DNA of 64,000 nucleotides, taken from an uncultured bacterium. GTDB taxonomy: Bacteria; Edwardsbacteria; AC1; EtOH8. Both the position numbers and the translations under genes were made by a program. The stretch's first letter is position 1. Each line of letters starts with the position of its first letter. Under the pieces are notes generated by a model. The model was not told the origin of the DNA and searched no databases. It was given only the letters and a program-made list of their open reading frames with translations. The DNA is taken from the NCBI GenBank assembly GCA_963780225.1, contig CAWAAX010000026.1, forward strand, positions 13,403 to 77,402, read 5' to 3'. Shown one piece after another: positions 11,385 through 57,259 of this stretch.

Positions 11385-11427
11385 AATTTAAAATAATAAA
11401 ATAAACTCAATGATATAAGAAATATAT

Positions 11428-12882: not shown

Positions 12883-12961
12883 GCCCGACCCCTCCCTTGA
12901 TCCCTCCCCGTTGCGGAGAGGGATAAGTTAGTTCGGTAAGGTAAACAAAAGAGGAGAGAGT

Positions 12962-13981: not shown

Positions 13982-13994
13982 ATTAAAGATACAT

Positions 13995-16043
13995 ATGAGC
14001 CTTCAATTCATCATACTCCTTTCCATGGGCTGGCTGCTGGCCGGCGCGGCCATTACCCTGGCCATGCCCTACTCCCGGCGCACCATCGGCTGGGTCTCGC
14101 TCTTCTTCCAGACCCTGGCGGCGGGCGGGTTCGGCTACGTGGCCGTCCAGGTGCTGGCCAACGGGACCTTCAGCCTGGACAAGCCGCTGTTCTCGGTGGC
14201 GGGGCTGGGGGCGGCCTTCCTGCTTAAGGTGGACGCGCTGTCGGCCATATTCCTGCTGGCCATCACCATCGTCTCCTGGGCGGCCGGGCTGTACTCGGTG
14301 CAGTACATCAAGCACTACAAGGAATCGCTGGGCCGCTACTATCCGCTGTTCCTGCTGTTCCTGTTGGGGATGTACGGGGTGGTGGTGGTGCGCGACCTGT
14401 TCTTCTTCATAGTCTTCTGGGAATTCATGACCCTGACCAGCTACGGCCTGGTGGTGTTCGAATGGGGCAACAAGCAGAGCGTCAACGCCGGCTTCAAGTA
14501 TTTCCTGATGACCCACATCGGCACCGCCGGCATCATCATCGCCGCCAACACCCTGTACCACTATTCGCAATCCTTTGACTTTGAGGCCCTGCGCCCGGTG
14601 ATGGCCCTGTTGAGCAGCGAGAACCCGGCCCTGCTGCACACAATCTTATTATTGTTCTTCGTGGGCTTTGCCACCAAGGCCGGCGTCTTCCCCTTCGGCG
14701 ACTGGCTGCCCGACGCCCACCCGGCGGCCCCGGCCCCGGTCAGCGCCATCCTTTCCGGGGTGATGATCAAGATGGGGATCTACGGGATCCTGAGGGTCTT
14801 TTGGGGGATGCTCCCGGTCTCCGACTTCTCCTATGTCTGGGGCACGGTGATGGCGGTGTTCGGCACGGTCTCGCTGTTCATCGGCACCATGACCATCATG
14901 TACCAGACCGACAGCAAGAGGTTCCTGGCCTTCAGCTCGGTGGGCCAGATCGGATACATCCTGCTGGCCGTCGGGGCCGGCCTGATGCTGACCCGGATCT
15001 CCCCGGCTTTGGCCACGGTGGCCCTGGTGGCCGGGCTGTTCCACCTGATCAACCACGCGGCCTTCAAGTCGCTGCTGTTCCTGACCGCCGGCTCGCTCCA
15101 GTATAGGACCGGAACCCGGGACCTGGACAAGATGGGCGGGCTGGCCAAATACATGCCCTGGACCGCCGCGGTGGCCATCATCGCCGCCCTGGGCATCTCC
15201 GGCATTCCTCCCCTCAACGGCTTCGCCAGCAAGTGGCTGATCTACCAGTCCACCATCAACGCCGGTTTCAACACGCCGATACTTCTGCTCTGCGGGCTGA
15301 TCGCCCTGTTCACCAGCCTTCTGACCCTGGCCAGCGTGATGGTAAAATACATCGGCCTGGCCTTTCTGGGCCAGCGCCTGCCCAGTAATAAAGATGTCAA
15401 CAGCGACGTGCCCCGCTCCATGATCTGGGCCCAGGGGATCCTGGCGGCTGTGGTCATCCTGGAGGGCGTGCTGGCCGGGTTCATCGTCCGCGGCCTGTAC
15501 AACGCCGCCAGCGGGCTCTTGACCCCGGACTACTGGCCCCAGTTCGGTTCGTTGTTCCACACGGCCTTCCTGGGCCTGCGCCTCAATTTCGGCGAGGGGC
15601 TGGTGGGCTTCTATAATCCCCTGTTCCTGCTGATCATCCTGGCCGGGCTGGCCTTGATCGCCGTGCTGTTCTGGTGGTCGGGCGGGGCCAAGCGCAGGGT
15701 GGTCTCCGAACTTTGGTACTCGGGCGAACGGCAGTCCCCGGCCTCGGTGCGCTATTCCTCCAGCAGCTACTTCAAGACCTTCAAGCAGAATTTCAACATC
15801 CGGATCGGCAAGTACACCCTGGAAGGCGTTTACCCCAAGTGGCCGTCGGTAAAGTTCAAGAAATCATTCAAACTCAAATACCTGCTGGACGTGGACAGCT
15901 GGCTGTACCGGCCCCTGGCCTTTTTGGGCCACAAGGCGCTGGAGATCTTCGCCGGCACACACAGCGGGTTCCCGCAGTGGTATCTGCTGTGGATGGTTAT
16001 CGGCGCGGCGGCGGCCATGCTGGTGATGTTTTTGGTGAGGTAG
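13995..16043 (+). CDS. NuoL/MrpA/HyfB-like large antiporter-type membrane subunit
   Basis: 682 aa (E. coli HyfB is 672 aa). Conserved core FPFGDWLPDAHPAAPAPVSAILSGVMIKMGIYG. Confidence 0.8.
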   Translation: MSLQFIILLSMGWLLAGAAITLAMPYSRRTIGWVSLFFQTLAAGGFGYVAVQVLANGTFSLDKPLFSVAGLGAAFLLKVDALSAIFLLAITIVSWAAGLYSVQYIKHYKESLGRYYPLFLLFLLGMYGVVVVRDLFFFIVFWEFMTLTSYGLVVFEWGNKQSVNAGFKYFLMTHIGTAGIIIAANTLYHYSQSFDFEALRPVMALLSSENPALLHTILLLFFVGFATKAGVFPFGDWLPDAHPAAPAPVSAILSGVMIKMGIYGILRVFWGMLPVSDFSYVWGTVMAVFGTVSLFIGTMTIMYQTDSKRFLAFSSVGQIGYILLAVGAGLMLTRISPALATVALVAGLFHLINHAAFKSLLFLTAGSLQYRTGTRDLDKMGGLAKYMPWTAAVAIIAALGISGIPPLNGFASKWLIYQSTINAGFNTPILLLCGLIALFTSLLTLASVMVKYIGLAFLGQRLPSNKDVNSDVPRSMIWAQGILAAVVILEGVLAGFIVRGLYNAASGLLTPDYWPQFGSLFHTAFLGLRLNFGEGLVGFYNPLFLLIILAGLALIAVLFWWSGGAKRRVVSELWYSGERQSPASVRYSSSSYFKTFKQNFNIRIGKYTLEGVYPKWPSVKFKKSFKLKYLLDVDSWLYRPLAFLGHKALEIFAGTHSGFPQWYLLWMVIGAAAAMLVMFLVR

Positions 16044-16133
16044 AACCTTAGACGGGATTAACATGATTTTCAAAACTTGGAGGTTAACTTCGACAGAAGA
16101 TCATCAATCAACAAGATTCTTTGGAGAAACATA

Positions 16134-16397
16134 ATGAAACTCCGGCTGGCATTAGTGGTCTTAGCGATGATGTTTACCAGTGCCTACGCTGATTTTGCGG
16201 AAGATTCTACAGCAGCACAACCGGTCGTACAGAAAACCACCGATTCATTACGGCAGTCGAATACTTGGCCCGGCACATATCATATTTGCTCTGTTGGACT
16301 GGGGAAGTACAGCCCGCGTCCGTACTTTTCGTATACGCCAGTCGGGATAAAGAACTGCTCAATGTCTTGCCGGAATCCAGTATTCGTCTGGTTTTAG
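16134..16397 (+). CDS. Small secreted hypothetical protein
   Basis: GGAG RBS and the signal peptide MKLRLALVVLAMMFTSAYA. No homology is recognisable. Confidence 0.3.
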   Translation: MKLRLALVVLAMMFTSAYADFAEDSTAAQPVVQKTTDSLRQSNTWPGTYHICSVGLGKYSPRPYFSYTPVGIKNCSMSCRNPVFVWF

Positions 16398-16891
16398 GTA
16401 TGGCCGTGACCGACAGGGTAGACCTGCTGGCGAACATTGACGGAGGGTATTTGCAGTGTGGGACTAAGCACCGGGTACGTTTCACCGCACAATTTCAGGC
16501 TCAGGCCTTGGGATCCGGTATAATTTTGGATCACGACAGGTGGATGTTTCCATACATTGCGCCTAATGTTGCCGAGGCGATTCTGAGATGAGGTACAGCA
16601 ACTAAGAATTATTCATTCATGTTTATTGCAAATAGGATTCGTACGGAGAACTGAGAAGCCACCTGGTATTAGCTGCGGATCGAGATACGCGGGGACTGAT
16701 ATCCGGCCGTGCACAATCATTTTACGCAAGCCGGATGAAATGGCTGTTAGGGATTTCTACGAATGGCGGTATAATTCATCATATATTGCAAGATACTTAT
16801 AATGAAGGGCAAGAGGTTCCAATAATGCTTTGCAGACAGTTAACCTTTCAACAATGGCAACATAAAGCAACATCTTAAACAAAGGGATACA

Positions 16892-18208
16892 ATGACCAAA
16901 CAGGAAATACTCTCTTTACTAAAGGCCAAGCTGGGCACCGGATTCATCGCCCACAGCGAGCCTATTCCCGACCAGCTGTGGGTGGAGGTCAAGCCCCAGG
17001 CCTCGGTCCAGGCCGTGGAGATACTGCACCGCACCACCAAGGCCCGCTATCTGGTGAGCGTGGGCTCGGACGAGCGGGAGCTAAAGAAGCGCTTCGGGGT
17101 CTACCACCTGTTCAGCTTTGACAAAGAACACTTCTTCGTCACCATCGACGTCTCGGCCGACCCCCACAAGCCGGTGCTGCCCTCCATCACCAACGTCATC
17201 GCCGGGGCCAACTGGTCGGAGCGGGAGATCCGCGATCTGTTGGGCGTGCAGTTCGAGGGCCATCCCGATCCCCGGAGATTAGTTCTGGCCGATGACTGGC
17301 CGAACGAGGTCTATCCGCTGCGCCGGGACTTCGACTACAGTTCCAAGCCGCCCTCCAACCCGGAGAACGCCTATCCCTTCAAGGACAACCCGCCCAACAC
17401 CACGGTGGTGGCCATGGGGCCGTATTTCCCGGTGTTCGAGGAAGCCACCTATTTCCGGCTGTACGTCGAGGGCGAAAAGGTGGTGGACGTGGACTACCGC
17501 GGATTTTACGCCCACCGGGGCATAGAAAAACTGGGCGACGCTTCGCTGACCTACAACCAGATACCCTTCATCGCCGAGCGGATCTGCGGTATCTGCGGCT
17601 TCGTCCACAACGTCTCCTTCTGCAAATTAGTGGAACACGCGGCCGGGATCAAGGTCCCGCGCCGGGCCGACTACATAAGAACCATCATGCTGGAGCTGGA
17701 GCGCATCCATTCCCACGCCCTGTGGCTGGGGGTGGCCGGGCACATCATCGGCTTTGACACCGTGCTGATGCAGACCTGGCGGATGCGGGAGCCCATCATG
17801 TGGCTGTGCGAAAAGCTGACCGGCAACCGCAAGACCTACGGCATGAACCTGATCGGCGGGGTGCGCCGGGACATCACCAAGGCCCAGGTGCCCGAGGTCC
17901 GCAAAAAGATCGACGCCATGGACAAGGAATGGCAGGCGGTGCTGGACGCCGTCAAGGACGACACCACATTAAGAATGAGATTAGAGAAGGTGGGGATCCT
18001 CAACCGCGAGCAGAGCCACGAGTGGGCGGCAGTGGGCCCGGTGGCCCGGGCGGCCGACATCGACATGGACTCCCGCAAGGACCATCCCTACTGCGCCTAC
18101 GACGCGGTGGATTTCAAGGTGATCACCGCCGACACCAACGACGTCTGGGGCCGGACCGTGGTCCGGATCCTGGAAACAATCGAATCGTTCAAGATCGTCC
18201 GCCAATGA
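16892..18208 (+). pseudogene. Truncated tandem duplicate of the 5' 1.3 kb of the hydrogenase large-subunit gene
   Basis: 16892-18205 is near-identical to 18205-19518, with a few synonymous or conservative differences. The junction ..GTCCGCCA|ATGACCAAACAGG creates a TGA, so the copy ends before the C-terminal Ni-binding motif. Confidence 0.7.
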
Positions 18209-36021: not shown

Positions 36022-38667
36022 ATGAAACTGACAAGATTCCAATGGTACCGGGCCGGGTTGATATTTTTGCTGGCGGTGCTGATCGCCGCCGGGCTGGTAC
36101 TGTTTAAGACCACCCGGCAGCTTGCGCTGACTGTGGATAACGGATCATCCAAACTGGAGATCCTGTCGGCCATAGGCCGGGTGCGCCTGCTGGCGCGGGA
36201 GATGGAAATGACCCGGCCGGCGCCCGGTACGCCGCAGGACGATCCGGCGGCCGTCCGCTACGGGAACACGGTCGAAAATGCCAGGGCGGAGATAACCGCA
36301 TTGGCCAGGCAGACGGCCGACTGGCCGGTGCAGTTGGAACGGGTCGCCTTGCTTAATACCCTGGTCCAGGATCAGGTCTATAAGATGACCCCAGTACTGC
36401 CTAAACCGGCGGCAGGCAAGGGAAAGGGTCTCGCCGGGATAAAGCCGGAAACGGTCCCCGGGCCGGATTTCAGCGGCATCAAGACCATTCTCAACCGCAT
36501 GGAGGAGGATGAGGGAAAGGTCGTTGCTTCATGGCGCAATAACCTGTGGAACTCTCTCCGGATGCTGGCTGTTGCGGTAGTAGTGATAGTGATCGCCGCC
36601 GGCATCGTCGCCGTGGTGGCCTATCTTCTGATGTTGATCGAATTCTCCCGGCGCCGGTCGACCGAGCGGCTGTTGCGGGAGAGCCAGCTTCGCTTCGGCC
36701 TGCTGATTGACGAAGCCATGGACTTCTCCCTGGTTGTGCTTGACGCCTCCGGCCGGATGGTCGACTGGAACCTGGGGGCGAAGCGGATGTTTGGATACAG
36801 CGCCGGCGAGGTCAGGCGCAAGCACTTCTCCAAACTCTTTCCTCAGGAGCAGGTTCAGCAGGGCCTCCCGGAAAGGCATCTGAAAGCGGCGATTAACAGC
36901 GGACAGGACCGCGACGAGGGGATTCTGATCCGCCACGATTCCGGATCTTTTCCGGTCCGGAAAGCGGTCTATGCTCTGCGGGATGACGCCGGCAGGCTGA
37001 GCGGCTTTGCCGCGGTGATCCAGGATATAACCGAAGAACAACATTCCCGGGAAGAAGTGGCCAAGCTCGGCCTGTCGCTGGAGAACTCGACCGATCTGGT
37101 AGCCATCACCACGGCCGATGGGATCATAGAACAAGTCAACCGGGCGCTGCTGGCGGCGACCGGATACGCCCTGGAGGAACTGTTGGGAAAGCCGCTGGAC
37201 TCTCTGCGGCCGGCCGGCTCCAAACCCAAGCCCCAAGATACGGAAGGACAGGCCTCGTTCATCCGCAAGAAGAACGGAGATCAGCTGCAGGTGTCGCAGA
37301 CCACGGCCCCGGTCATTGACAAAGCCGGGCGTACCACCCATCTGGTAGTCACGTCAAAGGATGTCACCGCCCAGAAACAGCTGGAGGTTAAATTATCTTT
37401 CCTGCATCAGCACGATCCGCTGACCGGCCTGTTCAACCGGAACTATTTCCAGGCCCAGGCCAAAGAGGAAATAGACCGGAGGACCGGCGGGAGCGCAATG
37501 CTGATCATCTGTATCGACCGCTTCCGGCAGATCAATGACGTTTTCGGCATCAATGCCGGAAACCTGGTGCTGATGCAGCTGGCCGAATGCCTGCGAAAAG
37601 AAGTGGGCCACCGGGGCGTGATAGGGCGCATGGGCAGCGACGAGTTCGGCATCGTCCTCCGGGACGTGCACGATCCAGAAGACGTGACCGCCATAGTTAT
37701 GGCCGTCAAGAAGCACGCCGCCCGGCGGGTGGCAGTCAACGGCCGCAAGCTGTTTCTGACCTTGTCAGCCGGCGCCTCGCTTCATCCCGACGACGGCATC
37801 GATTCCGAGACACTGCTGAAGAACGCCGATGTGGCTTTGGTCCATGCCAAATCCAGCGGATTGAACCAGTTCCGCATGTACTCGAACGAGATCAATAACC
37901 GGATGTCGGCCCTGATGTCCATGGAACAACAGCTGTTCGGCGCCCTTCAGAATAACGAATATACCGTCAGTTATCAGCCTTATTTCGAGCTGAACCACCG
38001 GCGGATCGCCGGGGCCGAGGCCCTGATCCGATGGGTCAACAGCGAACTGGGCACGGTCTCCCCCGACCGGTTCATCAAGGCCCTGGAGACCACCGGCCTG
38101 ATCATAGACGTCGGCAACTGGGTGCTTAAGGCGGCCTGCCTTCAGGCCAAGAAGATGGAAAGCACCAAGCACAGATTCCCGCTGTCGGTAAACCTGTCGC
38201 CGTCGCAGTTCCGTTACGACGGTTTGGTGGACACGGTCAAAGAAATAATAGGCGAAACCAACATCGACCCCCGGCTGCTGACCATGGAGGTTACCGAGAG
38301 CGTCTTTGTAGAGGACCTGGGTTTCGCCCAGTCGGTGCTGAAACAGCTGAAAAAAGTCGGAGTGGCCATATCCATAGACGACTTCGGCACCGGCTATTCA
38401 TCGCTGAGCTACCTCAAGAAGTTGCCGGTGGACGTTGTAAAAATAGACCAAACCTTTGTGCACGACGTTACCAGCGATCCCGACACCGCCTCCATCGTCA
38501 CTTCGATCACCAACATGGCCAAGAGCCTGGGCCTGAAGACCATCGCCGAAGGGGTGGAAACCGAGGAGCAGTGCAAGGTGCTGCGCCTGCTGCGATGCGA
38601 CATGGGGCAGGGGTATTTCTTCAGCCCGGCCATGAATGCGGTGGACTTTGAGAGGTCGTTGGTCTAA
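36022..38667 (+). CDS. Membrane sensor protein with PAS domains, a degenerate GGDEF (GSDEF) and an EAL domain (predicted c-di-GMP phosphodiesterase)
   Basis: N-terminal TM helices and two PAS domains. The GGDEF site reads RMGSDEFGIVL. The EAL motif AEALIRW and the downstream EAL-domain residues are intact. Confidence 0.85.
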   Translation: MKLTRFQWYRAGLIFLLAVLIAAGLVLFKTTRQLALTVDNGSSKLEILSAIGRVRLLAREMEMTRPAPGTPQDDPAAVRYGNTVENARAEITALARQTADWPVQLERVALLNTLVQDQVYKMTPVLPKPAAGKGKGLAGIKPETVPGPDFSGIKTILNRMEEDEGKVVASWRNNLWNSLRMLAVAVVVIVIAAGIVAVVAYLLMLIEFSRRRSTERLLRESQLRFGLLIDEAMDFSLVVLDASGRMVDWNLGAKRMFGYSAGEVRRKHFSKLFPQEQVQQGLPERHLKAAINSGQDRDEGILIRHDSGSFPVRKAVYALRDDAGRLSGFAAVIQDITEEQHSREEVAKLGLSLENSTDLVAITTADGIIEQVNRALLAATGYALEELLGKPLDSLRPAGSKPKPQDTEGQASFIRKKNGDQLQVSQTTAPVIDKAGRTTHLVVTSKDVTAQKQLEVKLSFLHQHDPLTGLFNRNYFQAQAKEEIDRRTGGSAMLIICIDRFRQINDVFGINAGNLVLMQLAECLRKEVGHRGVIGRMGSDEFGIVLRDVHDPEDVTAIVMAVKKHAARRVAVNGRKLFLTLSAGASLHPDDGIDSETLLKNADVALVHAKSSGLNQFRMYSNEINNRMSALMSMEQQLFGALQNNEYTVSYQPYFELNHRRIAGAEALIRWVNSELGTVSPDRFIKALETTGLIIDVGNWVLKAACLQAKKMESTKHRFPLSVNLSPSQFRYDGLVDTVKEIIGETNIDPRLLTMEVTESVFVEDLGFAQSVLKQLKKVGVAISIDDFGTGYSSLSYLKKLPVDVVKIDQTFVHDVTSDPDTASIVTSITNMAKSLGLKTIAEGVETEEQCKVLRLLRCDMGQGYFFSPAMNAVDFERSLV

Positions 38668-38739
38668 AACTGTCTGGTTGCATTGCTCATCTCCACTAAT
38701 GAAGTCATCTATATCAAGCTGGGCGGGATGATGTGGTTG

Positions 38740-38982
38740 GAGGAGTTCATAGAGAAGTTTCATCCGCCTACGCAGGACACCACGAGCTATGCCCGTGGGG
38801 CTCCATAAATGTACAAAGCCTCGTTAGCACGGGGCTTTTTTTATTTCCCTGAAGTCGTTTTAAAATATCTCCAATAAAGTGCTTGCTTAAAACAACTTAT
38901 TGATATAAAATATACTGTCAAACTCCATTACTACGTCTGCATAAAAAATCTTATAAAAATACCCCAAACGAGGAGGTATCTT
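38740..38982. repeat. Duplicate of the gatD 3' end, terminator and 5' leader module (compare 35790-36020)
   Basis: ..GGAGGAGTTCATAGAGAAGTTTCAT.., the terminator AGCCTCGTTAGCACGGGGCTTTTTTT and the AAAATATCTCCAATAAAGTGCTTGCTTAAAACAACTTATTGATATAAAATATACTGT segment parallel 35790-36020. Confidence 0.6.
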
Positions 38983-40653
38983 ATGCCGTCAGCCAGAAAA
39001 AAATCAGGGCTTTCGCCCGTCCGGCCCGCCAGGACGGCCTTGCTGCCCACCGCCAAGAGCGAGCTTTCCAGCCTTAAGATGAAACTCAAGGTGCTTCAGC
39101 GGGTCAACGAGATCGCCGCCAGCACCTTCGACGTCCAGCCACTGCTGGACCGGGCCATGGATTTGGTGACCGAGATCGCGCCCTCCGAGGCCGGGTCGCT
39201 GCTGCTGTTGTCCTCCGACCGCACCTACCTGAAATTCTCCATCGTCAAGGGGCCGGCCGCTCACAAGCTGGAGGGGCTGGAGATACCCATTGGGCAGGGC
39301 ATTGCCGGCTGGGTGGCCAAGACCGGGATCCCGCTGACCGTCAACGACGTTCAGAGCGAGCCCAAGTGGAAGAAGGAGATCGCCGATAACGTGGACTTTC
39401 CCACCCGCAGCATCCTTTGCGTCCCGCTAAAATCGAGGGCCGAGGTGATCGGCGTGGTGGAGCTGATCAATAAACTGCGGGACGAGGATTACAACGATGA
39501 CGACCTGGAGATCATAGAACTGTTAGGCGCCCATCTTTCCACCCTGATCGAGAACAGCCGGCTCTATTCCGAGGCCCGGGAGAAGGTGGAGAGGATCACC
39601 GCCATGGCCGAGACCAGCGCCCTGATCTCCTCCTCGCTGGATGTCAAGCGGGTGCTGGAGACGGTGATGAACGTGGCCAAGGACGTGATAGATGCCGAGG
39701 CCTCATCCATCTTCCTGTACGATGAGGAGAGGCACGAGTTCTTCTTTGAGATCGCCACCGGCGACGCCGGCGACGCGGTCAAGCAGATCCGAGTTCCCTG
39801 GGGCAAGGGGATGGTGGGCTGGGCGGCCGAGCACATGCAAACCCTTTTGATCCCTGACGTCACCAAGGACCCCCGGTTCTATTCCAAGGTAGACGAGAAA
39901 TCGAAATTTATCACCCGCAACGCCATCACCGTTCCGCTGAAACCCAAGAACAAACTGATCGGGGTGGCCCAGGTGCTCAATAAGAAAGGCGGGCTGTTCA
40001 CCCGCGAGGACGTGGAGCTGTTCGAGACCCTGGCCCGCCAGGCGGCGGTGGCCATCGAGAACGCCAGCCTTTATACCGACCTTCAGGAGCTGTTCCTTAA
40101 CTCCATCCGGACCGTGGTCAGCCTGATCGACGCCAAAGACGACTACACCGCCGGCCATTCCTCCCGGGTCACCAAGTATTCCATGATGATTGCCGACCAG
40201 CTGGGCTTTTCACCCGAGGACCGCAAGCGGCTGGAGCTGGCGGCCCTGCTCCACGACGTGGGCAAGATCGGGATGCCGGACGCCATCTTAAAGAAACCGT
40301 CGGGGCTGACCCCCGAGGAGTTCGCCATCGTCAAGGACCACCCCAACAAGGGGGCCGAGGCCCTGGAGCCGATCAAGCAAATGAAGGACATCATCCCCGG
40401 GGTGCGCCACCACCACGAGAAGCTGGACGGACGGGGCTACCCGGCCGGGCTGGCCGGCGACCAGGTGCCGATGGATGCCCAGATCATCTGCGTGGGGGAT
40501 TCCTACGACGCCATGAACTCCGACCGTCCCTACCGCAAGGGTTTGGGGATGGAGGAATCGGTCAGACGCCTGCGCCAGGATGCTGGCACCCAGTTCAATC
40601 CGGCCCTGGTGGAAGCATTTGTCAAAGCGCTGGAGAAGGAGAACAAAAAATGA
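38983..40653 (+). CDS. GAF-GAF-HD-GYP domain protein (c-di-GMP phosphodiesterase class)
   Basis: Two GAF domains, then the HD domain with HDVGKIG and HHEKLDGRGYPAGL (HD-GYP signature). Confidence 0.85.
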   Translation: MPSARKKSGLSPVRPARTALLPTAKSELSSLKMKLKVLQRVNEIAASTFDVQPLLDRAMDLVTEIAPSEAGSLLLLSSDRTYLKFSIVKGPAAHKLEGLEIPIGQGIAGWVAKTGIPLTVNDVQSEPKWKKEIADNVDFPTRSILCVPLKSRAEVIGVVELINKLRDEDYNDDDLEIIELLGAHLSTLIENSRLYSEAREKVERITAMAETSALISSSLDVKRVLETVMNVAKDVIDAEASSIFLYDEERHEFFFEIATGDAGDAVKQIRVPWGKGMVGWAAEHMQTLLIPDVTKDPRFYSKVDEKSKFITRNAITVPLKPKNKLIGVAQVLNKKGGLFTREDVELFETLARQAAVAIENASLYTDLQELFLNSIRTVVSLIDAKDDYTAGHSSRVTKYSMMIADQLGFSPEDRKRLELAALLHDVGKIGMPDAILKKPSGLTPEEFAIVKDHPNKGAEALEPIKQMKDIIPGVRHHHEKLDGRGYPAGLAGDQVPMDAQIICVGDSYDAMNSDRPYRKGLGMEESVRRLRQDAGTQFNPALVEAFVKALEKENKK

Positions 40654-42929
40654 GCAATGCAATGAGAAGCAAAAAGACCACCGGCGCATTGGTAGGAATC
40701 GGAGTTGTGTTCGCAGTGATTTTGTTGTCGAGGCTTTTGAATTTCTTTAACACAATGGAAAACAAGGCCTACGACCTACGGTGCAATCTCATGGTCGGTC
40801 CGGTTGGCGAACAGAACATCGACGACGTGGTAATTGTGGATATCGACGATGCATCACTGGCTCAGCTGGGGAGGTTCCAAAACTGGCCAAGGCTTTACCA
40901 CGCTAAGGTGGCGGATTATCTTGCTCAAGGCGGGGCAAAGGCGATCACTTTTGATATATATTTCACGGAAAGCGACAGCCTGAAACCCGAGATGGTGGAT
41001 TTTTTCGTGCAAACCAAAAAGGAAAATGTTGACGCCAGTCTGGCACAACTGCCGTCTCTCAAAATATCTTCAAACAGAACTTCTGAAGTAATATCAACGG
41101 TGCTTAACAATTGGGGATATGACAAAGAATTCAGTGAGGTCGCCCAGGCTGCGGGGAAAGTGTATTTCCCGTTAATATTCGTTACCTCTGGAACCGGTGA
41201 CACCATTGGAAAAGCAGATACGTCGATAATACAACACGGTTTCAAGTTCGAACCTGCAATAAGCCGGATATTTTCGGCTCTGGACTTTCAAGGAAACCCA
41301 ATTAATCCCGATTTGTTGCTGCCTGTCAGCCAACTAATGAGTGCGGCTAAAGGTACTGGCTATTATAATATCATGCCAGATATTGATGGTGTCACAAGGC
41401 GGCAAATGCTATTTATTACTTATGCCGGGACCTCATATCCTTCGCTTGATTTGCGCATTGTTATGGATGCCCTCGGGGTAAAACAGAATGAGGTAACAGT
41501 AGAACCCGGAAAATTTATTCGGCTGGGCGATAAACGAACCATACCGATTGACGATGACAATTGGATGCGCATCACTTATTTCGGATCATTCAAGAAATTC
41601 CGTTATATTTCATATGCTGACGTGTTGACTGAAAACGTGCCGGCCGAATATTTCAAAAACAAAATTGTACTTATCGGTACATCCGCGGCTGGCTTGATGG
41701 ACTTGCGGGTAGTGCCATTTTCCAATCAGTTTCCCGGACCGGAGATACATGCCAATATTATGGAGACATTGCTTACCGGCCGGTTTATCAACGCACTGCC
41801 GGAGTGGGTTAATCTCGCGATCCTTGTAATTACCGGTCTGTTAACAGTATTTATCTCCCTGCGATTCAAGCCGGTAAATGCCAGCCTGGTGCTGTTCGGG
41901 CTGGTAATTATATATTTTGCAGCCGCCATCATGCTATTCAACAAGGCACTTTTGTGGATAGAGGTTGTCCGGCCGCTGACCGTAATCCTGTTCACCAACA
42001 TGGCCATTTTGGGCTACCGCTACCTGACCGAGGAAAAACAGAAGGTCTGGATCAAGAACATGTTCCAGGGCTACATGTCCAAGGACCTGGTGGACAAGAT
42101 CATGGCCAACCCCGAGATGCTGCTGATGGGCGGCGACAAGAAGGAGGTCACCGTCTTCTTCTCCGACATCAAGGGCTTCTCCAGCTTCTCCGAGAAGCTG
42201 GGAACCCCGGAACGGCTGATCGCCCTGATCAACGAGTACCTGGGGGCCATGTCCGACGTGGTGCTGGAATACGGCGGCTACATCAGCAAATACGAGGGCG
42301 ACGCCATCATGGCCTTCTGGGGCGCACCCACCGACGATCCCAAGCATGCCGAGACCGCCATCAAGTGCGTCTGGGCCATGAACCAGCGCCTGCAGACGCT
42401 TAACGCCGACCTGGCCAAGCGCAGCATGCCCAATCTTTTCACCCGGTTCGGGCTTAACACCGGCCTGGTGACCGTGGGCAACGTGGGCTCGGAAAAGAAG
42501 AAGAGCTATACCGCCATGGGCGACTCCATCAACCTGGGCTCGCGGCTGGAGGGGGCCAACAAGGAATACGGCACGGCCATCATGATGTCGGAATTCACCT
42601 ACGCCAAGGTACAGGGCCTGTACCCGGTGCGGGAGCTGGACATGCTGAGGGTGGTGGGCAAGGAACAGCCGGTAAGGGTCTACGAACTACTGGGAATTTC
42701 CGAGGCCGACGTCAGCGAAAAGAAAAAGAAGGCGGTGGAGATATACCTGAAGGGCCTGGAGCTCTATCGTTCCAAGCAGTGGGACCAGGCCGAGGCCGTG
42801 TTCCGGCAGGCTTTGGAAGTGGATCCCGACGACGGGCCAAGCAAGACGTATATCGACCGCTGCGAGGACTTCAAGGTCCTGCCGCCGCCGGAGAACTGGG
42901 ACGGCGTGTTCGTTATGAAGACGAAATAG
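40650..42929 (+). CDS. CHASE2-domain class III adenylate/guanylate cyclase with C-terminal TPR
   Basis: Periplasmic CHASE2-like region bounded by TM helices. The cyclase core has FSDIKGFSSFSEKL and ...GDAIMAFWGAP.. Confidence 0.8.
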   Translation: MSNAMRSKKTTGALVGIGVVFAVILLSRLLNFFNTMENKAYDLRCNLMVGPVGEQNIDDVVIVDIDDASLAQLGRFQNWPRLYHAKVADYLAQGGAKAITFDIYFTESDSLKPEMVDFFVQTKKENVDASLAQLPSLKISSNRTSEVISTVLNNWGYDKEFSEVAQAAGKVYFPLIFVTSGTGDTIGKADTSIIQHGFKFEPAISRIFSALDFQGNPINPDLLLPVSQLMSAAKGTGYYNIMPDIDGVTRRQMLFITYAGTSYPSLDLRIVMDALGVKQNEVTVEPGKFIRLGDKRTIPIDDDNWMRITYFGSFKKFRYISYADVLTENVPAEYFKNKIVLIGTSAAGLMDLRVVPFSNQFPGPEIHANIMETLLTGRFINALPEWVNLAILVITGLLTVFISLRFKPVNASLVLFGLVIIYFAAAIMLFNKALLWIEVVRPLTVILFTNMAILGYRYLTEEKQKVWIKNMFQGYMSKDLVDKIMANPEMLLMGGDKKEVTVFFSDIKGFSSFSEKLGTPERLIALINEYLGAMSDVVLEYGGYISKYEGDAIMAFWGAPTDDPKHAETAIKCVWAMNQRLQTLNADLAKRSMPNLFTRFGLNTGLVTVGNVGSEKKKSYTAMGDSINLGSRLEGANKEYGTAIMMSEFTYAKVQGLYPVRELDMLRVVGKEQPVRVYELLGISEADVSEKKKKAVEIYLKGLELYRSKQWDQAEAVFRQALEVDPDDGPSKTYIDRCEDFKVLPPPENWDGVFVMKTK

Positions 42930-48639: not shown

Positions 48640-50079
48640 TTATTTCCTCCCTTTCTTGGTGACACCCCGAGCCTGTCGAGGGGCAGTTTTCTTGGCTATT
48701 TTCACGGCCTTCTTGGCTGGCTTCTTGGCGGGCTTGGCGGTTCGTTTGACGTTTGACGTTTTACGTTTAACGTTCTTGGCTTTCGGCGCCGGGCTCACGG
48801 TGCGGGGATCGGTGATCTCTCCCGTTATGGCCGAAGCCGCGGCGGTGGCCGCCGAGCACAGGTAGACCTCGGCGTTGGGGTTTCCCATCCGTCCCTTGAA
48901 GTTCCGGTTGGTGGTGGCCAAAGCCTTGTCGCCGTCGGCCAAAGCGCCCTGGTGCACGCCCAGGCAGGGGCCGCAGCCGGAGTTCATCACCACCGCGCCG
49001 GCCGTCATGAATATCTCCACGTAACCCTTCTTCAAAGCCTGCTGATAGATCCTGGTCGAAGCCGGGAACACCAGCATCCGGACGCTGCGGGCCACTTTCT
49101 TGCCCTTAAGAATGCCGGCTGCTATCGCCAGGTCATCCAGCCGGCCGTTGGTGCAGGAGCCGATCACGATCTGCTGGACCTTGATGCCGCGGGCTGCGCC
49201 CACCGGCTTGACGTTGTCCACGGTATGGGGGAAGGCGATCTGGGGCTCCAGCTTGGAGGCGTCGATCTCCACCACCTGTTCGTAGACCGCGTCCGGGTCC
49301 GGCCCGAACAGTTCGGGGATATTCTTGACCCCGGCTTCCTGCTTCAGGTAGCGGACGGTCTCGGCGTCCGGCGGGACGATGCCGCCGGTGGCCCCGGCCT
49401 CCACCGTCATGTTGCAGAGCACCAGGCGGCCGGAGGTGGACATCTTTTTTATGGTCTCGCCGTGGAACTCGATCACCTTGAAGTTGGCGCCCTCGGCGGA
49501 CAGCTTGCCGATCAGGTTCAAAATTATATCCTTGGGCTCGACGTATTTCGGCAGTATTCCGTTGACCACCACCTTGATGGTGCCCGGCACTTCCACGTTC
49601 AGGATCTTTCCCAAAGCCCAGACTGCTGCCATTTCGGTGGCCCCGATGCCGAAGGAGAAGGCCCCCAGCGCTCCGTGGCTGGTGGTGTGACTGTCGGTGC
49701 CCACGATGACCGAGCCCGGCAGGTCGTAACCGTTCTCGGGCAGGATCTGATGGCAGATGCCGCCCTCGTCGCCGCGGATGTCGTGGAATTTGGTGATGCC
49801 CTGTTTGGCCACGAACTCGCGGATCTTCTTCTGGTTCCCGGCGGTCTTGGAGCTCTCGGCCGGCACCCGGTGGTCAAAGATGATGGCGATCTTGGAAGGA
49901 TCCCATATCTTGGCCTCGATACCGGTGTCCTTGTAGATCTCGTTGAACTGGTTGATCACCAGCGCGCCGTTCTCGTGGGACATGGCCAGGTCTACCTTGG
50001 GCTCGACCACGTCGTTCACCTTGACGGATGCCTGGCCGGTGGCCTTGGCCAGGATTTTTTGGACCATTGTCATTCCCAT
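48640..50079 (-). CDS. leuC: 3-isopropylmalate (or homoaconitate) dehydratase large subunit with a ~55-aa Lys/Ala/Pro-rich C-terminal tail
   Basis: Aconitase-family motifs (VGTDSHTTSHG, GSCTNGR, NSGCGPCLG). The tail PAPKAKNVKRKTSNVKRTAKPAKKPAKKAVKIAKKTAPRQARGVTKKGRK is in frame with no stop. Confidence 0.85.
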   Translation of the reverse strand: MGMTMVQKILAKATGQASVKVNDVVEPKVDLAMSHENGALVINQFNEIYKDTGIEAKIWDPSKIAIIFDHRVPAESSKTAGNQKKIREFVAKQGITKFHDIRGDEGGICHQILPENGYDLPGSVIVGTDSHTTSHGALGAFSFGIGATEMAAVWALGKILNVEVPGTIKVVVNGILPKYVEPKDIILNLIGKLSAEGANFKVIEFHGETIKKMSTSGRLVLCNMTVEAGATGGIVPPDAETVRYLKQEAGVKNIPELFGPDPDAVYEQVVEIDASKLEPQIAFPHTVDNVKPVGAARGIKVQQIVIGSCTNGRLDDLAIAAGILKGKKVARSVRMLVFPASTRIYQQALKKGYVEIFMTAGAVVMNSGCGPCLGVHQGALADGDKALATTNRNFKGRMGNPNAEVYLCSAATAAASAITGEITDPRTVSPAPKAKNVKRKTSNVKRTAKPAKKPAKKAVKIAKKTAPRQARGVTKKGRK

Positions 50080-50911: not shown

Positions 50912-53017
50912 TTATATCGCCTGTTTTTCCTTCATGGCCTTGATCTCTTCGGCGGTGTAGCCCAGCTGGGTCAGGATCTCCTGCTGGTGCTGGCCCAATG
51001 TCGGCGGCGGGGCGTCGATGCTGGCTGGGGTGGCCGAGAACTTGGCCGACAGGTTGAACAGCTTAAGCTCGCCCAGATCCTTATCCTGGATGGTCTCGAT
51101 GGTCTTGCGGTACTTTACCTGCCCGGCGGCCAGGGCCTTCTCCAGGCTAAAGATGTCGCCGGTGGGGATGCCCTTGGCGTTCAGCGCCTCCACCCAGTAA
51201 TCGGTGGTCTGTATTTTCAATTTTTCTTCCAGCAGGGGGGTCAGCGCCTTGCGGTTCTTCTTGCGGGTGTCCCGCTCCTGGAACCGGGGATCGGTCAAAA
51301 GTTCCGGCACGCCCAGCACGGTGGCCAGGTCCTCCCACTGTTTCTGCTGGTTGGCGGCGATGTTGACGAAGCCGTCCTTGGTGACGAAGGTCCCGGAGGG
51401 GGCGGCGGTGAAGTTGTCGTTGCCCATGGCCACCGGCTGCTGTCCTCCGATCAGCAGGTTGGCCGCCACCCAGCCCATCAGGGGCATGATGGAGTCCAGC
51501 AGGGCGATGTCTATGAACTGGCCCTCGCCAGTCTTCTCCCGGTAATACAGGGCGGCCATGATGGCGAAGGCGGCGTTAAGCCCGCCCACCGTGTCGCAGA
51601 CCGGGAAGCCGGCCCGCAAGGGATGCAGGCGCTCGTCGCCGTTGACGTCCATCACCCCGGACAGGCCCTGGATGATCTGGTCGTAGGCCGGCTTAAAGGC
51701 GTCTGGCCCGGCCTGGCCGAACCCGGAGATGGCGCAGTAAACTATCTTGGGATTGATCTTCTTGATCTCGGCGTAGGAAAAGCCCAGCCGGTCCATCACC
51801 CCGGGGCGGAAATTCTCCACCACCACGTCGGCGGTCTTCAGCAGCTTGCGGAAGATCTCCTTGGCCTCCTCGGCCTTCAGGTTCAGGGTGATGGACTTCT
51901 TGTTGGCGTTCTGGGCCAGAAAGGAGGTGCCCATCAGCTTCTGGTTCAGGGCAGGAACTGCCCCCAGCTTGCGGGCAAGGTCGCCGCCCTCGGGGTTCTC
52001 GATCTTGATCACCTCGGCCCCCAAAAGAGCCAGGTGCATGGTGGAAAAGGGCCCGGACAGGACGTTGGTCATGTCCAGCACCCGGATGTTCTGCATCATT
52101 TTTTTAGGCCTCGGTTTTATCAGTGAGCCGGACCTGAGCACGGCGCCCGGCAGTTCGCGGTTAAAGAATACGGAGACTTCCTGGGCCACATCCAGCAGAC
52201 GGAACAGGTCGATGTCGGTCCTAAGCTCTGCCCGCTGCAGGGAGTGGACAAAATCCTCGGTGCTGACGTTGCCGGCCGCCACCTTGGTGAAGGGGCATCC
52301 GCCCAGGCCGCCCACCGCCGTCTCGATGTATTTCACCCCGGAGTTCAGGGCCGCGTAGCAGTTGGCCATCCCCAGCCCGTAGGTGTTGTGGAAATGGCAG
52401 GCCAGTTCCACGTTCGGGTCCATCTTCCGGATGGCTGAAAACAGCCGTTCCACCTGCTGGGGGTTGGCATGCCCGGCGGTGTCGGCCAGGCTGATGTTTT
52501 TGATCCCGGCCTCCAGGTACTTCTTGACCATGGCCAGCACCTTGTCCTCCGGTATGGGGCCGTCGAAGCCGCAGCCGAAGGCCGACTGGACCGAGGCCTG
52601 GACCTTTTTGCCGGCGTCCTGGGCCTTTTTGGCCATTGACAGGATCTGTTCCATGGCTTTTTCAGGGCTCATCCCGGTGTTCTTCTGGCTGTGGGTCTCG
52701 CTGGCCGAGACGCCCATGCAGAACATCTCCACCCCGCAGGCCAGCCCCCGCTCAAAACCCTTTTCGTTCAGCACCAGTCCGGAGAGGATGGTCTTGGGGT
52801 TCGGCTTGCCGTTCTTGGCGTAATGCTCGAACAGGGAGTCGGTGTCGGCCATCTGGGGCACCTTCACCTGGTGGACAAAGGAGCCCACCTGGATGATGTC
52901 CACCCCGGAACCCATCAGGGCGTCGATCCATTTGATCTTGAGGTCCGTGGGAACCGGCTGTTTTTCTATCTGCAGGCCGTCCCGCAGGCCTACTTCGTGA
53001 ATGAAGATTTCAGGCAT
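50912..53017 (-). CDS. Fusion protein: an HMG-CoA lyase-like (DRE-TIM metallolyase) N-terminal domain plus a family III CoA-transferase (CaiB/BaiF) C-terminal domain
   Basis: The N-terminus EVGLRDGLQIEKQPVPTDLKIKWIDALMGSGVDIIQVGSFVHQVKVPQM aligns with HMGCL. The C-terminal half has NIRVLDMTNVLSGPFSTMHLALLGAEVIKIENPEGGD. Confidence 0.75.
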   Translation of the reverse strand: MPEIFIHEVGLRDGLQIEKQPVPTDLKIKWIDALMGSGVDIIQVGSFVHQVKVPQMADTDSLFEHYAKNGKPNPKTILSGLVLNEKGFERGLACGVEMFCMGVSASETHSQKNTGMSPEKAMEQILSMAKKAQDAGKKVQASVQSAFGCGFDGPIPEDKVLAMVKKYLEAGIKNISLADTAGHANPQQVERLFSAIRKMDPNVELACHFHNTYGLGMANCYAALNSGVKYIETAVGGLGGCPFTKVAAGNVSTEDFVHSLQRAELRTDIDLFRLLDVAQEVSVFFNRELPGAVLRSGSLIKPRPKKMMQNIRVLDMTNVLSGPFSTMHLALLGAEVIKIENPEGGDLARKLGAVPALNQKLMGTSFLAQNANKKSITLNLKAEEAKEIFRKLLKTADVVVENFRPGVMDRLGFSYAEIKKINPKIVYCAISGFGQAGPDAFKPAYDQIIQGLSGVMDVNGDERLHPLRAGFPVCDTVGGLNAAFAIMAALYYREKTGEGQFIDIALLDSIMPLMGWVAANLLIGGQQPVAMGNDNFTAAPSGTFVTKDGFVNIAANQQKQWEDLATVLGVPELLTDPRFQERDTRKKNRKALTPLLEEKLKIQTTDYWVEALNAKGIPTGDIFSLEKALAAGQVKYRKTIETIQDKDLGELKLFNLSAKFSATPASIDAPPPTLGQHQQEILTQLGYTAEEIKAMKEKQAI

Positions 53018-54257: not shown

Positions 54258-54394
54258 GAGGGTCTCCTTGTGGATATTGTTAAATGTTTAATAATCTTAT
54301 GGTAAGATTATCATTTTACCTTAAATAAATGCATTATGTCAAGGGAAACGGGGCAAGGGAAACTACCGCCGGGGGCTGGTCCGCAGCCCGGCTG

Positions 54395-54742
54395 TCACTG
54401 CGATCTCTTGATCTTCCGGTGGTCAGCTTTTTTCATTTTTTTATGGTCATCGCTGACCATGCTGTCCTGGTTGGCCCACTGGGTGATGTGCCTTAGCAAG
54501 ATCGGAACATATTGATTGGCGGCCGCCGAGGAGAGCCGGTAATTGACCCATAGAGTATCCCGCTTATCCTCCACCAAGCCGGCATTTTTAAGCTGATGGA
54601 GGTGCCGGGAGACGCAGGGCTGGGAAATGCCCAGGATCGAGGTTAACTCGTTCACGTTCATGGGCTTTTCCTGCAGCATCTTCAGGATTCTGATCCGGTT
54701 CTGGTCGCTCAGGGCCTTGAAAACTTTTACCAAGTTTTTCAT
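54395..54742 (-). CDS. ArsR/SmtB family transcriptional regulator
   Basis: HTH core LSDQNRIRILKMLQEKPMNVNELTSILGISQPCVSRHLHQL. Confidence 0.8.
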   Translation of the reverse strand: MKNLVKVFKALSDQNRIRILKMLQEKPMNVNELTSILGISQPCVSRHLHQLKNAGLVEDKRDTLWVNYRLSSAAANQYVPILLRHITQWANQDSMVSDDHKKMKKADHRKIKRSQ

Positions 54743-56048: not shown

Positions 56049-56561
56049 ATGAAAAAGCATAGTGGGATGAGACCCCATGACATTGTAGTATTACTAAAAA
56101 TATCCTCAAAAAAAGAACAACCATGGCTGATGAAAGATTTGGCCATGGAGCTTGATATTAGCGCTAGCGAAGTAAGCGAAAGCCTTAATCGTTCCATGTT
56201 GGCGGGATTGCTGGCCTCCGATAAGAAAAAAATAATGCAGTCCGCCTTGCTGGAGTTCTTAAAATACGGTATTCGTTATGTATATCCGCAAAAACCAGGT
56301 TCAATAGTAAGAGGTGTTCCAACGGCACTTTCATATTTGCCATTGAAAAAGTATATCATTAGCAATGATGCATTTGTTTGGGCGTATGCAGAAGGTAACG
56401 TAAGGGGGCAAAGTATTGAACCCTTGCATCCATCAGTACCCAAAGCATGTATGCGGGATAATAAATTGCATGAGCTTTTAGCACTTGTAGATGCTCTGCG
56501 CGTGGGTAAAATCCGGGAGCAAAATATTGCTATTGAGGAACTTGAAAGAAGACTTTTGTGA
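56049..56561 (+). CDS. Hypothetical winged-helix-like protein (possible AbiEi-like antitoxin); low GC
   Basis: It overlaps the downstream nucleotidyltransferase gene by 4 bp and is about 38% GC. Confidence 0.3.
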   Translation: MKKHSGMRPHDIVVLLKISSKKEQPWLMKDLAMELDISASEVSESLNRSMLAGLLASDKKKIMQSALLEFLKYGIRYVYPQKPGSIVRGVPTALSYLPLKKYIISNDAFVWAYAEGNVRGQSIEPLHPSVPKACMRDNKLHELLALVDALRVGKIREQNIAIEELERRLL

Positions 56562-57259
56562 TAAATAAAAGTAGTAATCTAAAAGCAATTGTTAAAATCG
56601 CAGAAGCGCTCGAAGAGTTAAAGGAAGAAGTAGTATTTGTTGGTGGGGCTGTCGTTGGTCTGTATGCTAACGATTCTGCAGCTGAAGATGTTAGACCAAC
56701 AAAAGATGTTGATATTATTGTGCATATCGTTTCTACTGTTGAATTGGAGAAGCTTAGATTGAAGCTTGTGGGAAAAGGCTTTAAACAAAGTCCTGAAGAA
56801 AAGGTTATTTGTCGGTTTTTATACCAAGGCATTAAATTGGATGTAATGAGCACTAAGGAAGTGGGGTGGGCACCTTCTAATTCATGGTTTGGTCCTGGTT
56901 TTAAACATTTAGAAAACCATAAAATTGGTGCTATAACCGTTAATCTATTACCATTGTCTTATTATTTAGCGACGAAATTTGCAGCTTTTCATGATAGAGT
57001 TGGTACTGACCCTCGCTTTAGCAAGGACTTTGAAGACATAACATATTTACTAGACAATAGGACTGATTTAGTTGAATCATTAACACGTGCGCCCGAAGAT
57101 GTAAAAAAATATTTGCATGTTGAATTTAAAAGAATACTATCAGATAAAATCCTGCAAGAAGCACTTATGGCAAATATGAGTCACCTAATACAAACAAAAC
57201 GTTATAAAATGGTAGAGTCAAAGTTAAAGGAAATTGTAAAGGATTTTAAACAAGGTTAA
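56558..57259 (+). CDS. Pol-beta-superfamily nucleotidyltransferase (AbiEii/MNT-like); low GC
   Basis: FVGGAVVGLY...RPTKDVDIIV matches hG[GS]...DhD. About 36% GC. Confidence 0.45.
   Translation: MINKSSNLKAIVKIAEALEELKEEVVFVGGAVVGLYANDSAAEDVRPTKDVDIIVHIVSTVELEKLRLKLVGKGFKQSPEEKVICRFLYQGIKLDVMSTKEVGWAPSNSWFGPGFKHLENHKIGAITVNLLPLSYYLATKFAAFHDRVGTDPRFSKDFEDITYLLDNRTDLVESLTRAPEDVKKYLHVEFKRILSDKILQEALMANMSHLIQTKRYKMVESKLKEIVKDFKQG

Follow-up and report, generated by a model that had tools for sequence, protein, structure and literature searches.

Why should a gene that joins a lyase of the 3-hydroxy-3-methylglutaryl-coenzyme A (HMG-CoA) lyase family to a family III CoA-transferase stand where the 2-isopropylmalate synthase gene, leuA, would be expected? 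The question is raised by a stretch of 64,000 nucleotides (hereafter the window; contig CAWAAX010000026.1 of assembly GCA_963780225.1, positions 13,403 to 77,402) from an uncultured sediment bacterium, Candidatus Edwardsbacteria, in which a first-pass annotation had noticed a single 701-residue open reading frame (ORF) of this kind in a leuB-x-leuC-leuD arrangement. We find that the fusion is the 'Rosetta stone' of two enzymes encoded side by side in a five-gene module that is widespread and has not been described. The function we favor for this module, with a probability of roughly 0.45, is a hydrolysis-free and reversible citramalyl-CoA route that would replace citramalate or isopropylmalate synthase.

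The fusion frame runs over 701 codons from ATG to TAA without interruption, and both parts are recognized as complete domains by Pfam: HMGL-like at residues 6-281 (156 bits, E = 1.3e-45, cut-off 29) and CoA_transf_3 at residues 309-678 (411 bits, E = 5.8e-123, profile positions 2-366 of 366). The motifs by which the lyase had been recognized, EVGLRDGLQ and VKVPQM, are both found in the translation. The same uninterrupted 701-residue architecture is repeated in eight related genomes labeled UBP2 or Edwardsbacteria, at 79-95% identity. The sequence also represents a 90% cluster whose 25 members come from NCBI, JGI, ENA and Logan; those of full length bear the name 'hydroxymethylglutaryl-CoA lyase [Candidatus Edwardsbacteria bacterium]' or '[candidate division TA06]', and some others are truncated. 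Because the architecture recurs in the eight genomes and in a cluster of several sources, and the frame is free of internal stops, an assembly artefact or a frameshift joining two genes is ruled out.

The lyase domain superimposes on solved HMG-CoA lyases (EC 4.1.3.4) with TM-scores of 0.90-0.93 by Foldseek at only 34-36% identity, the structures compared being human HMGCL (2CW6), Bacillus subtilis YngG (1YDO) and the enzymes of Pseudomonas aeruginosa (2FTP) and Acinetobacter baumannii (6NDS). It has in common with them the fold, the Arg-Asp pair, the His-x-His motif, the cysteine of the GGCP loop and the asparagine: residues R12, D13, D179, H208, H210, C241 and N250, equivalent to human R41, D42, D204, H233, H235, C266 and N275, are invariant in 78 orthologues. 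In contrast, 16 positions with no more than two residue types in the four solved lyases are occupied here by a different, clade-invariant residue. One of these changes is human Glu72 to Gln43; the others, about 15 and near strand ends, include Pro to Leu83, Tyr to Ser142 and Ile to Ala181. In other words, the Glu72 (in the I-E-x-x-SFV strand), P-N, Tyr167 and P-K-W positions of HMG-CoA lyase are replaced by Gln43, Leu83, Ser142 and Q-V-K, of which the first three are invariant or near-invariant in the clade and the last was read in the window protein alone; 1YDO, 6NDS, 2FTP and 2CW6 have Glu, Pro and Tyr or Thr at the corresponding positions. The Gln signature is kept in stand-alone relatives down to 50% identity. 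Since the substitutions fall on sites that are invariant in the solved lyases, a different acyl group is argued for, and the domain is predicted to be active as a retro-Claisen lyase, its acyl pocket having been reshaped. The first-pass description 'very similar to HMG-CoA lyase' was thus overstated, given the low identity and the changes at Glu72 and the other lyase-invariant positions. The closest structural match, 6NDS, comes from Acinetobacter and was deposited as an 'HMG-CoA lyase' in complex with CoA and 3-methylmalate; it has the RDGLQIE, HFHNT and LADT motifs in common with the clade but retains Glu72, and it may represent an intermediate type of use for modelling the acyl pocket. A synthase identity (2-isopropylmalate, citramalate or homocitrate) was rejected, as the LeuA-, CimA- and NifV-type models score 54-88 bits on the fusion against cut-offs of 413-950, a LeuA_dimer or regulatory domain is missing, and the C-terminal half is a CoA-transferase.

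That transferase domain is 77-81% identical to stand-alone proteins of 397-399 residues from other phyla, as judged among its best 120 matches. The triplet C474-D475-T476 is invariant, with D475 present in 45 of 45 sequences and aligned with the aspartate of 'mtDiv' in the closest solved transferase; we take D475 to be the catalytic aspartate of family III, the nucleophile that forms the acyl-anhydride (Asp169 in Frc). The nearest solved relatives are a Brucella 'formyl-CoA transferase' (9ZAV/10UH, a succinate complex) and human SUGCT (9BR6), matched at 258-268 bits (258 for SUGCT) and about 33% identity. Because these two are the nearest, the domain is assigned by its sequence to the succinyl-CoA/dicarboxylate branch of family III, to which both also belong. 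They differ from it in being stand-alone proteins, and their substrates are different (succinate-hydroxymethylglutarate for SUGCT) or unassigned.

The setting of the two enzymes was determined by scanning one genome per GTDB species, which gave 303 stretches, and analyzing the best 80, each from a separate metagenome-assembled genome (MAG). Among the 79 loci holding both genes, lyase and transferase are separate and adjacent in 69 and fused in 10. The separate genes usually lie 10-25 bp from each other, with an overlap of 4 bp in some loci (up to about 150 bp), and their products are about 306-313 residues (33.0-33.9 kDa) and 397-399 residues (43.5-43.8 kDa) long. LeuC- and LeuD-like genes follow the transferase in 54 of the 59 loci with enough sequence (92%), and a gene for a dehydrogenase of the Iso_dh family precedes the lyase in 53 of 69. 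The arrangement is spread over at least eight phyla, including Zixibacteria, Acidobacteriota (Aminicenantes, Vicinamibacteria), Ignavibacteria, Bacteroidota, Gemmatimonadota and Chloroflexota, with Elusimicrobia, KSB1, Planctomycetota and others in addition. In 39 complete loci the five proteins have mean pairwise identities of 65-76%, and their pairwise distances are correlated (r = 0.61-0.84), suggesting that the module has been inherited, and probably transferred, as a unit. The coupling of lyase with transferase, and of this pair with LeuCD- and LeuB-like proteins, that the first reading of the window had supposed is therefore borne out.

Beyond the five genes nothing is conserved. From about 80 loci, 665 flanking ORFs were clustered and 222 scanned with Pfam; no ilv, leuA, liu (leucine-catabolic), tricarboxylic acid cycle or transporter theme emerged, families recurred only through synteny within single lineages, and carboxylase, acyl-CoA dehydrogenase and enoyl-CoA hydratase families were not found among the 222. 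A neighbor that looked like a fumarase was actually aspartate ammonia-lyase. Because no other neighbor is conserved, the module appears self-contained. The sole recurrent accessory is a four-subunit VorB-type 2-oxoacid:ferredoxin oxidoreductase, a type acting on aliphatic 2-oxoacids, which adjoins the module in a Bacteroidota lineage (L038, L042, L045, L049, L063, L082 and L083) in two different arrangements or orientations. These loci also hold a small rubrerythrin-like ORF and two ORFs of no known type, and in L082 LeuC and LeuD are themselves fused into one protein of 600 residues. Our literature searches for the gene combination returned no description of the five-gene module or of the fusion. 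An acetone-induced 'HMGL-like' protein of Desulfotomaculum, considered as a relative system, was dropped since its gene context differs. In public databases the parts are annotated as HMG-CoA lyase, formyl-CoA/oxalate CoA-transferase and isopropylmalate enzymes.

The 10 fused loci comprise eight from Edwardsbacteria, one from a Planctomycetota MAG (L047, also P0014; 724 residues) and one from a Gemmatimonadales MAG (L069). Their linkers are about 5, 29 and 30 residues long in the three lineages, and because linkers and junctions differ, the fusion must have arisen at least three times. An apparent triple fusion in L069 was discarded, the upstream extension of the ORF not being in the dehydrogenase frame. 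A search of 1.8 billion cluster representatives found just two further fusions, P0329 and P0346, which are distant (31-34% identity) and combine a canonical Glu72-type HMG-CoA lyase signature with a family III transferase. The fusion is thus a local, minor, lineage-specific variant, and the widespread five-gene module is the more interesting object.

In an alignment with loci that have separate genes, stop codon and spacer have disappeared from the Edwardsbacteria junction. The sequence GAGG, 9 nucleotides upstream of the codon for the internal Met306 (52093-52104, minus strand), is conserved in Edwardsbacteria; it looks like the relic ribosome-binding site of the former start codon, and the transferase half might be translated separately from it. 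In the AlphaFold model of the fusion (predicted TM-score, pTM, 0.50) the transferase half is poor as a monomer, with a TM-score of about 0.45 to the solved interlocked dimers. Both the HMGL-lyase and the family III CoA-transferase families form dimers, and therefore the fusion protein is probably a higher oligomer.

The substrate of the module can be approached through its three leu-type proteins, which by sequence are archaeal-type members of the LeuB, HacA and LeuD families. They do not make up a canonical leucine operon, since all three miss the NCBIfam equivalog cut-offs for leuB, leuC and leuD. The LeuC-like protein scores 263 against 560 for TIGR00170 (leuC) but passes IPMI_arch (509 against 410), and its best solved match is the large subunit of the Methanocaldococcus jannaschii isomerase, which acts on isopropylmalate and citramalate (409 bits, against 372 for homoaconitase). 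Similarly, the LeuD-like protein fails TIGR00171 (leuD; 49 against 116) and is closest to the small subunit of the same M. jannaschii enzyme (115 bits, against 91 for homoaconitase). The dehydrogenase-like protein falls below every NCBIfam equivalog or subfamily cut-off (TIGR00169 leuB, 216 against 353; LEU3_arch, 340 against 410).

The specificity loop of the LeuD-like protein, PGR[FY]MATVLP, is invariant but for one V-to-I substitution, and its Ala (FMAT) replaces both the Arg of homoaconitase (YLRT) and the Val of the isomerase (YLVY). The loop is hydrophobic here as in the M. jannaschii isomerase (MJ0499/MJ1277; PDB 4KP1, 3VBA), despite the difference between FMAT and YLVY. In the dehydrogenase the loop, from residue 94, is YRSPIVRMRQ; 53 of 55 informative orthologues have exactly this sequence and all have SPIV. 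The loop has Val at the position of Arg85 of Thermus homoisocitrate dehydrogenase (HICDH) and Ile at that of Asn115 of isocitrate dehydrogenase (IDH). We take Arg26 in the HacB loop YLRT, Arg85 of Thermus HICDH and Asn115 of IDH to be the binders of the distal carboxylate, as established by published mutagenesis. Because these residues are missing from both the LeuD-like and the dehydrogenase-like loops, the loops together suggest that the malate carries an alkyl and not a carboxyalkyl group, as in citramalate or isopropylmalate. The Edwardsbacteria LeuC-like protein differs from the isomerase in a further respect: its C-terminal approximately 50 residues (48640-48790, minus strand) form a histone-H1-like tail that is rich in Lys, Arg, Ala and Pro and ends in KKGRK. 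Other Edwardsbacteria loci (L004, L006, L007, L072 and L074) encode tails of similar kind that vary in sequence; L003 has none, nor has any of the non-Edwardsbacteria loci examined (L001, L011, L016, L017 and L062).

On these grounds we propose the following route. The lyase would join acetyl-CoA with a 2-oxoacid, most likely pyruvate, to a 2-alkylmalyl-CoA, most likely (R)-citramalyl-CoA; the transferase would then pass the CoA to an acceptor, most likely succinate, giving (R)-citramalate and succinyl-CoA. The LeuCD-like enzyme would interconvert (R)-citramalate, citraconate and (2R,3S)-3-methylmalate, and the dehydrogenase would convert 3-methylmalate and NAD(P)+ to 2-oxobutyrate, CO2 and NAD(P)H, each step being reversible. 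The route employs all four activities and is stereochemically consistent, because (S)-HMG-CoA and (R)-citramalyl-CoA are spatially equivalent and LeuCD acts on the (R) form of citramalate. Since the thioester would be passed on and not hydrolyzed, the first step would be reversible and the whole route near equilibrium, judging from approximate textbook free energies. A low level of the acyl-CoA intermediate would be expected, which offers a rationale for the tight coupling and the repeated fusion. The route would also suit the Bacteroidota loci with a VorB-type oxidoreductase, in two of which a gene resembling that of methionine-gamma-lyase, whose product might make 2-oxobutyrate, lies upstream. 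We infer the substrate, the CoA partner and the direction of the module from these features; for the direction, elongation to a longer 2-oxoacid is weakly favored because the final oxidative decarboxylation pulls. Of the non-canonical branched 2-oxoacid or citramalate pathway suggested for the window at the outset, the alkyl-malate chemistry is favored by the specificity loops.

This logic can be compared with that of known systems. In the pathway of CimA or LeuA with LeuCD and LeuB, a DRE-TIM enzyme, an aconitase-family isomerase and a beta-decarboxylating dehydrogenase act in the same order and the first gene has the same position, but the thioester is hydrolyzed, whereas the module, without a synthase, would transfer it. 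Citrate and citramalate lyase and the itaconate trio also transfer CoA onto a hydroxy-dicarboxylate and then form acetyl-CoA (or acetyl-ACP) and a 2-oxoacid by retro-Claisen cleavage; however, they use unrelated families, a class II CitF-type transferase and the CitE/malyl-CoA-lyase fold, and (S)-citramalyl-CoA. A close parallel, judged by what has been described of it, is the Ccl/Sct pair of Chloroflexus aurantiacus, likewise an HMGL-family lyase with an Asp-dependent, succinyl-CoA-type family III transferase. Friedmann, Alber and Fuchs (2006/2007) are said to have found that its genes lie next to each other and are co-transcribed, and that the subunits measure about 34 and 44 kDa. The reported work followed the cleavage reaction, and the revision of the 3-hydroxypropionate bi-cycle is said to have left the physiological role of the pair open. 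These reported sizes agree with those of our stand-alone orthologues and the stereochemistry of the pair is compatible with LeuCD; the Chloroflexus enzymes are two proteins, in contrast to the one polypeptide of Edwardsbacteria. Reviews confirm the EC entries and reactions of Ccl and Sct (PMC8307300, PMC8085960), and one of them (PMC8307300) lists (R)-citramalyl-CoA lyase (EC 4.1.3.46) with succinyl-CoA:(R)-citramalate CoA-transferase (EC 2.8.3.20) among the indirect ways in which (R)-citramalate might be formed. In three homologue searches, one of them started with a protein of a 'Chloroflexia' MAG and another with that of a divergent member of the clade, the best 120 matches of each were unnamed or metagenomic proteins, with none from Chloroflexus.

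Several observations weigh against the proposed citramalyl-CoA route. The lyase domain scores 275 with the NCBIfam model PRK05692 for the HMG-CoA lyase subfamily and so passes its cut-off of 246. Among solved structures the dehydrogenase is nearest to NAD-dependent IDH and Thermus HICDH, and its loop retains the equivalent of Ser113 and carries two additional Arg residues. In some genomes neither LeuCD nor the dehydrogenase is encoded near the lyase/transferase pair. No riboswitch, T-box, attenuator or leader was found upstream of the cluster, and no feedback-regulatory domain among the Pfam matches of the module proteins. Finally, the very high identity across phyla together with varying regulators (ArsR, Rrf2, LysR) gives the module the look of a mobile accessory or catabolic unit, and a Liv-type amino-acid ABC transporter downstream of the module in L085 would suit catabolism.

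The last two points lead to the alternative that survives best, in which the same chemistry runs in the catabolic direction: citramalate, citraconate or 3-methylmalate would be activated with CoA and cleaved to acetyl-CoA and pyruvate, and 2-oxobutyrate could be drawn in after reductive carboxylation, giving C4 and C5 compounds a B12- and ATP-independent entry to central metabolism. A lyase combined with a CoA-transferase is indeed the standard design for cleaving hydroxy-dicarboxylates, as in citrate and citramalate lyase, itaconate degradation and the Chloroflexus Sct/Ccl assays (PMC8307300, PMC8085960), and upstream of the module in L082 and L083 the VorB-type oxidoreductase is accompanied by the methionine-gamma-lyase-like gene. 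Nevertheless, all such hints come from a few lineage-specific loci. A dicarboxylate transporter is not conserved beside the module among the flanking ORFs scanned, running the dehydrogenase in reverse would need high CO2 and NADH, and net cleavage of the free acid would presumably give no extra thioester. We regard the catabolic reading as rather unlikely.

An improbable, though chemically close, variant is that the module makes leucine precursors, with acetyl-CoA and 2-oxoisovalerate condensed to 2-isopropylmalyl-CoA and carried through 2-isopropylmalate to 2-oxoisocaproate. This would be a LeuA-free route to leucine or isovaleryl-CoA, for example for primers of iso-branched fatty acids. It would account for the leuA position of the fusion or pair, and it would fit the VorB-type oxidoreductase, which is of the 2-oxoisovalerate class. 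The Ile-Val of the dehydrogenase loop resembles Leu90-Leu91 of Thermus isopropylmalate dehydrogenase, and the solved isomerase nearest to the LeuCD-like proteins handles both substrates. It sits poorly with the missed leuB, leuC and leuD cut-offs, with the lack of ilv genes among the flanking ORFs and with a patchy, mobile distribution unlike that of an essential leucine pathway. In addition, to our knowledge the sole characterized HMGL-family relative of this type acts on citramalyl-CoA.

It is still harder to see here an ordinary HMG-CoA lyase with a SUGCT-like transferase, degrading free 3-hydroxy-3-methylglutarate or leucine to acetoacetate and acetyl-CoA beside unrelated leu-type neighbors. 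The NCBI name, the PRK05692 score, the placing of SUGCT among the nearest named transferases and the existence of the two distant Glu72-type fusions all agree with such a pair. Against this stand the clade-invariant changes at Glu72, Tyr, Pro and other positions invariant in the solved lyases, and the lack of liu or other leucine-catabolic neighbors in about 80 loci, in which the genomic partners differ from those of HMG-CoA lyase. The 92% association with LeuCD-like genes would be left unexplained, and HMG is implausible as a substrate of an aconitase-family enzyme because it has no alpha-hydroxy acid group. Least probable of all is a citrate branch, in which a citryl-CoA lyase and citrate CoA-transferase would work with aconitase- and IDH-like enzymes in ATP-independent cleavage or synthesis of citrate, or a homocitrate equivalent: the solved relatives of the dehydrogenase, the passing of a mixed 'aconitase/IPM dehydratase' subfamily model by the LeuC-like protein and the membership of Re-citrate synthase among the DRE-TIM enzymes suit it, but the loops without the distal-carboxylate Arg or the Asn115/Arg85 equivalents, the higher LeuC and LeuD scores to isopropylmalate/citramalate isomerase than to homoaconitase or aconitase, a nearby oxidoreductase of VorB and not KorA type, and the identity of the supposed fumarase speak against it.

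Within the window, the genes of the module and their neighbors have the coordinates given in Table 1.

Table 1. Features of the fusion locus, in positions of the window.
Feature	Position	Strand	Basis
ArsR/SmtB-family regulator	54395..54742	-	Pfam HTH_5; NCBIfam HTH_metalloreg 88 vs cut-off 55
Sigma-70-like promoter match (11/12) ahead of dehydrogenase gene	54313..54342	-	consensus match only
Beta-decarboxylating dehydrogenase, LeuB-like, Iso_dh family, 372 aa	53139..54257	-	Pfam Iso_dh, 304 bits
Fused gene, HMGL-family acyl-CoA lyase + family III CoA-transferase, 701 aa, 76 kDa	50912..53017	-	intact ORF, two Pfam domains
Lyase domain, residues 1-300, DRE-TIM barrel	52118..53017	-	Pfam HMGL-like, NCBIfam PRK05692
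Fusion junction, residues ~296-309 (...SGSLIKPRPKK-MMQNIRV...)	52090..52132	-	alignment to separate-gene loci
CoA-transferase domain, residues 306-701, CaiB/BaiF family III	50915..52102	-	Pfam CoA_transf_3, full length
Inserted ORF between fusion and leuC, 210 aa	50274..50906	-	Pfam Phage_int_SAM_4 at residues 131-204
Aconitase-family dehydratase large subunit, LeuC/HacA-like, 479 aa	48640..50079	-	NCBIfam PRK00402, hacA_fam, IPMI_arch
Dehydratase small subunit, LeuD-like, 164 aa	48143..48637	-	TIGR02087 LEUD_arch 111.8 vs cut-off 108.95

All are on the minus strand in the order arsR, dehydrogenase, fusion, 210-residue ORF, LeuC-like and LeuD-like. The leuB-x-leuC-leuD layout first proposed is therefore correct as an architecture, except that an extra ORF separates x from leuC. 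This ORF consists of a family-less N-terminal part and the N-terminal SAM-like domain of an integrase (tyrosine recombinase) without the catalytic domain, as far as Pfam detects; it is present only in the window and in L074 (10110-10745) and lies outside the conserved module. The spacing from fusion to leuC is below 250 bp in most loci and roughly 35-190 bp in four other Edwardsbacteria loci. The gap is a recurrent insertion point: L006, L041, L046 and L080 have inserts of 0.6-2.5 kb there, and L002, a 95% identical relative, has one of 6.9 kb (10104-17001) holding genes for a C5 DNA methylase, a HATPase_c_3 protein, a response-regulator-like protein and a radical-SAM/SPASM protein. The arsR gene stands upstream of the module in Edwardsbacteria loci only, and is thus lineage-specific. 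Two good sigma-70-like consensus matches were found, one before arsR and one before the dehydrogenase gene.

A scan for the motif 'RDGxQ ... HxH' found no further DRE-TIM gene (leuA or cimA) elsewhere in the 64-kb window. The plus-strand surroundings are unrelated, encoding ScpA, an M23 peptidase, a sigma factor, LepA, cyclic-di-GMP signaling proteins and an AbiEii toxin. The last is a 233-residue ORF with an AbiEii domain (type IV toxin-antitoxin nucleotidyltransferase) that overlaps the end of a 170-residue family-less ORF (56049-57259, plus strand), in a stretch of 46% GC against about 59% in the flanking cluster region. A second-messenger block at 36022-42929 (plus strand) includes a PAS-GGDEF-EAL protein of 881 residues, a CHASE2-adenylate/guanylate cyclase-TPR protein of 759 residues, and a 556-residue protein whose C-terminal part matches, well below cut-off, the model of a NosR-family response-regulator c-di-GMP phosphodiesterase. 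The region 4001-6000 has a GC content of 42%, compared with 51-62% in the adjoining segments, and may be a foreign island.

Returning to the citramalyl-CoA route, its general form would be a thioester-conserving shunt for the elongation or shortening of 2-oxoacids in anaerobic sediment and groundwater bacteria, in which a reversible enzyme pair replaces an irreversible synthase and acetyl-CoA plus pyruvate would be interconverted with 2-oxobutyrate, CO2 and NADH without energy loss. Such a widespread role is a tentative and somewhat doubtful extension, with carriers numbering at least about 300 candidate loci in GTDB representative genomes. If true, the forward shunt would spare one thioester for each isoleucine, leucine or fatty-acid primer made, and the reverse shunt, combined with a 2-oxoacid:ferredoxin oxidoreductase, would convert propionyl-CoA and two CO2 to pyruvate and acetyl-CoA, a new CO2-incorporating route. 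The Chloroflexus (R)-citramalyl-CoA lyase/transferase pair would gain a physiological context, and the fusion would be a naturally fused, reversible citramalate-forming enzyme for engineering routes to 2-oxobutyrate, propanol or methacrylate that spare the thioester. The annotation of thousands of metagenomic proteins as 'HMG-CoA lyase', 'formyl-CoA/oxalate CoA-transferase' and '3-isopropylmalate dehydrogenase/dehydratase' would then be wrong, since they would belong to one pathway, and leucine catabolism, ketogenesis and leucine biosynthesis would be misassigned wherever the metabolism of Zixibacteria, Aminicenantes, Ignavibacteria, Bacteroidota, Gemmatimonadota and others is reconstructed.

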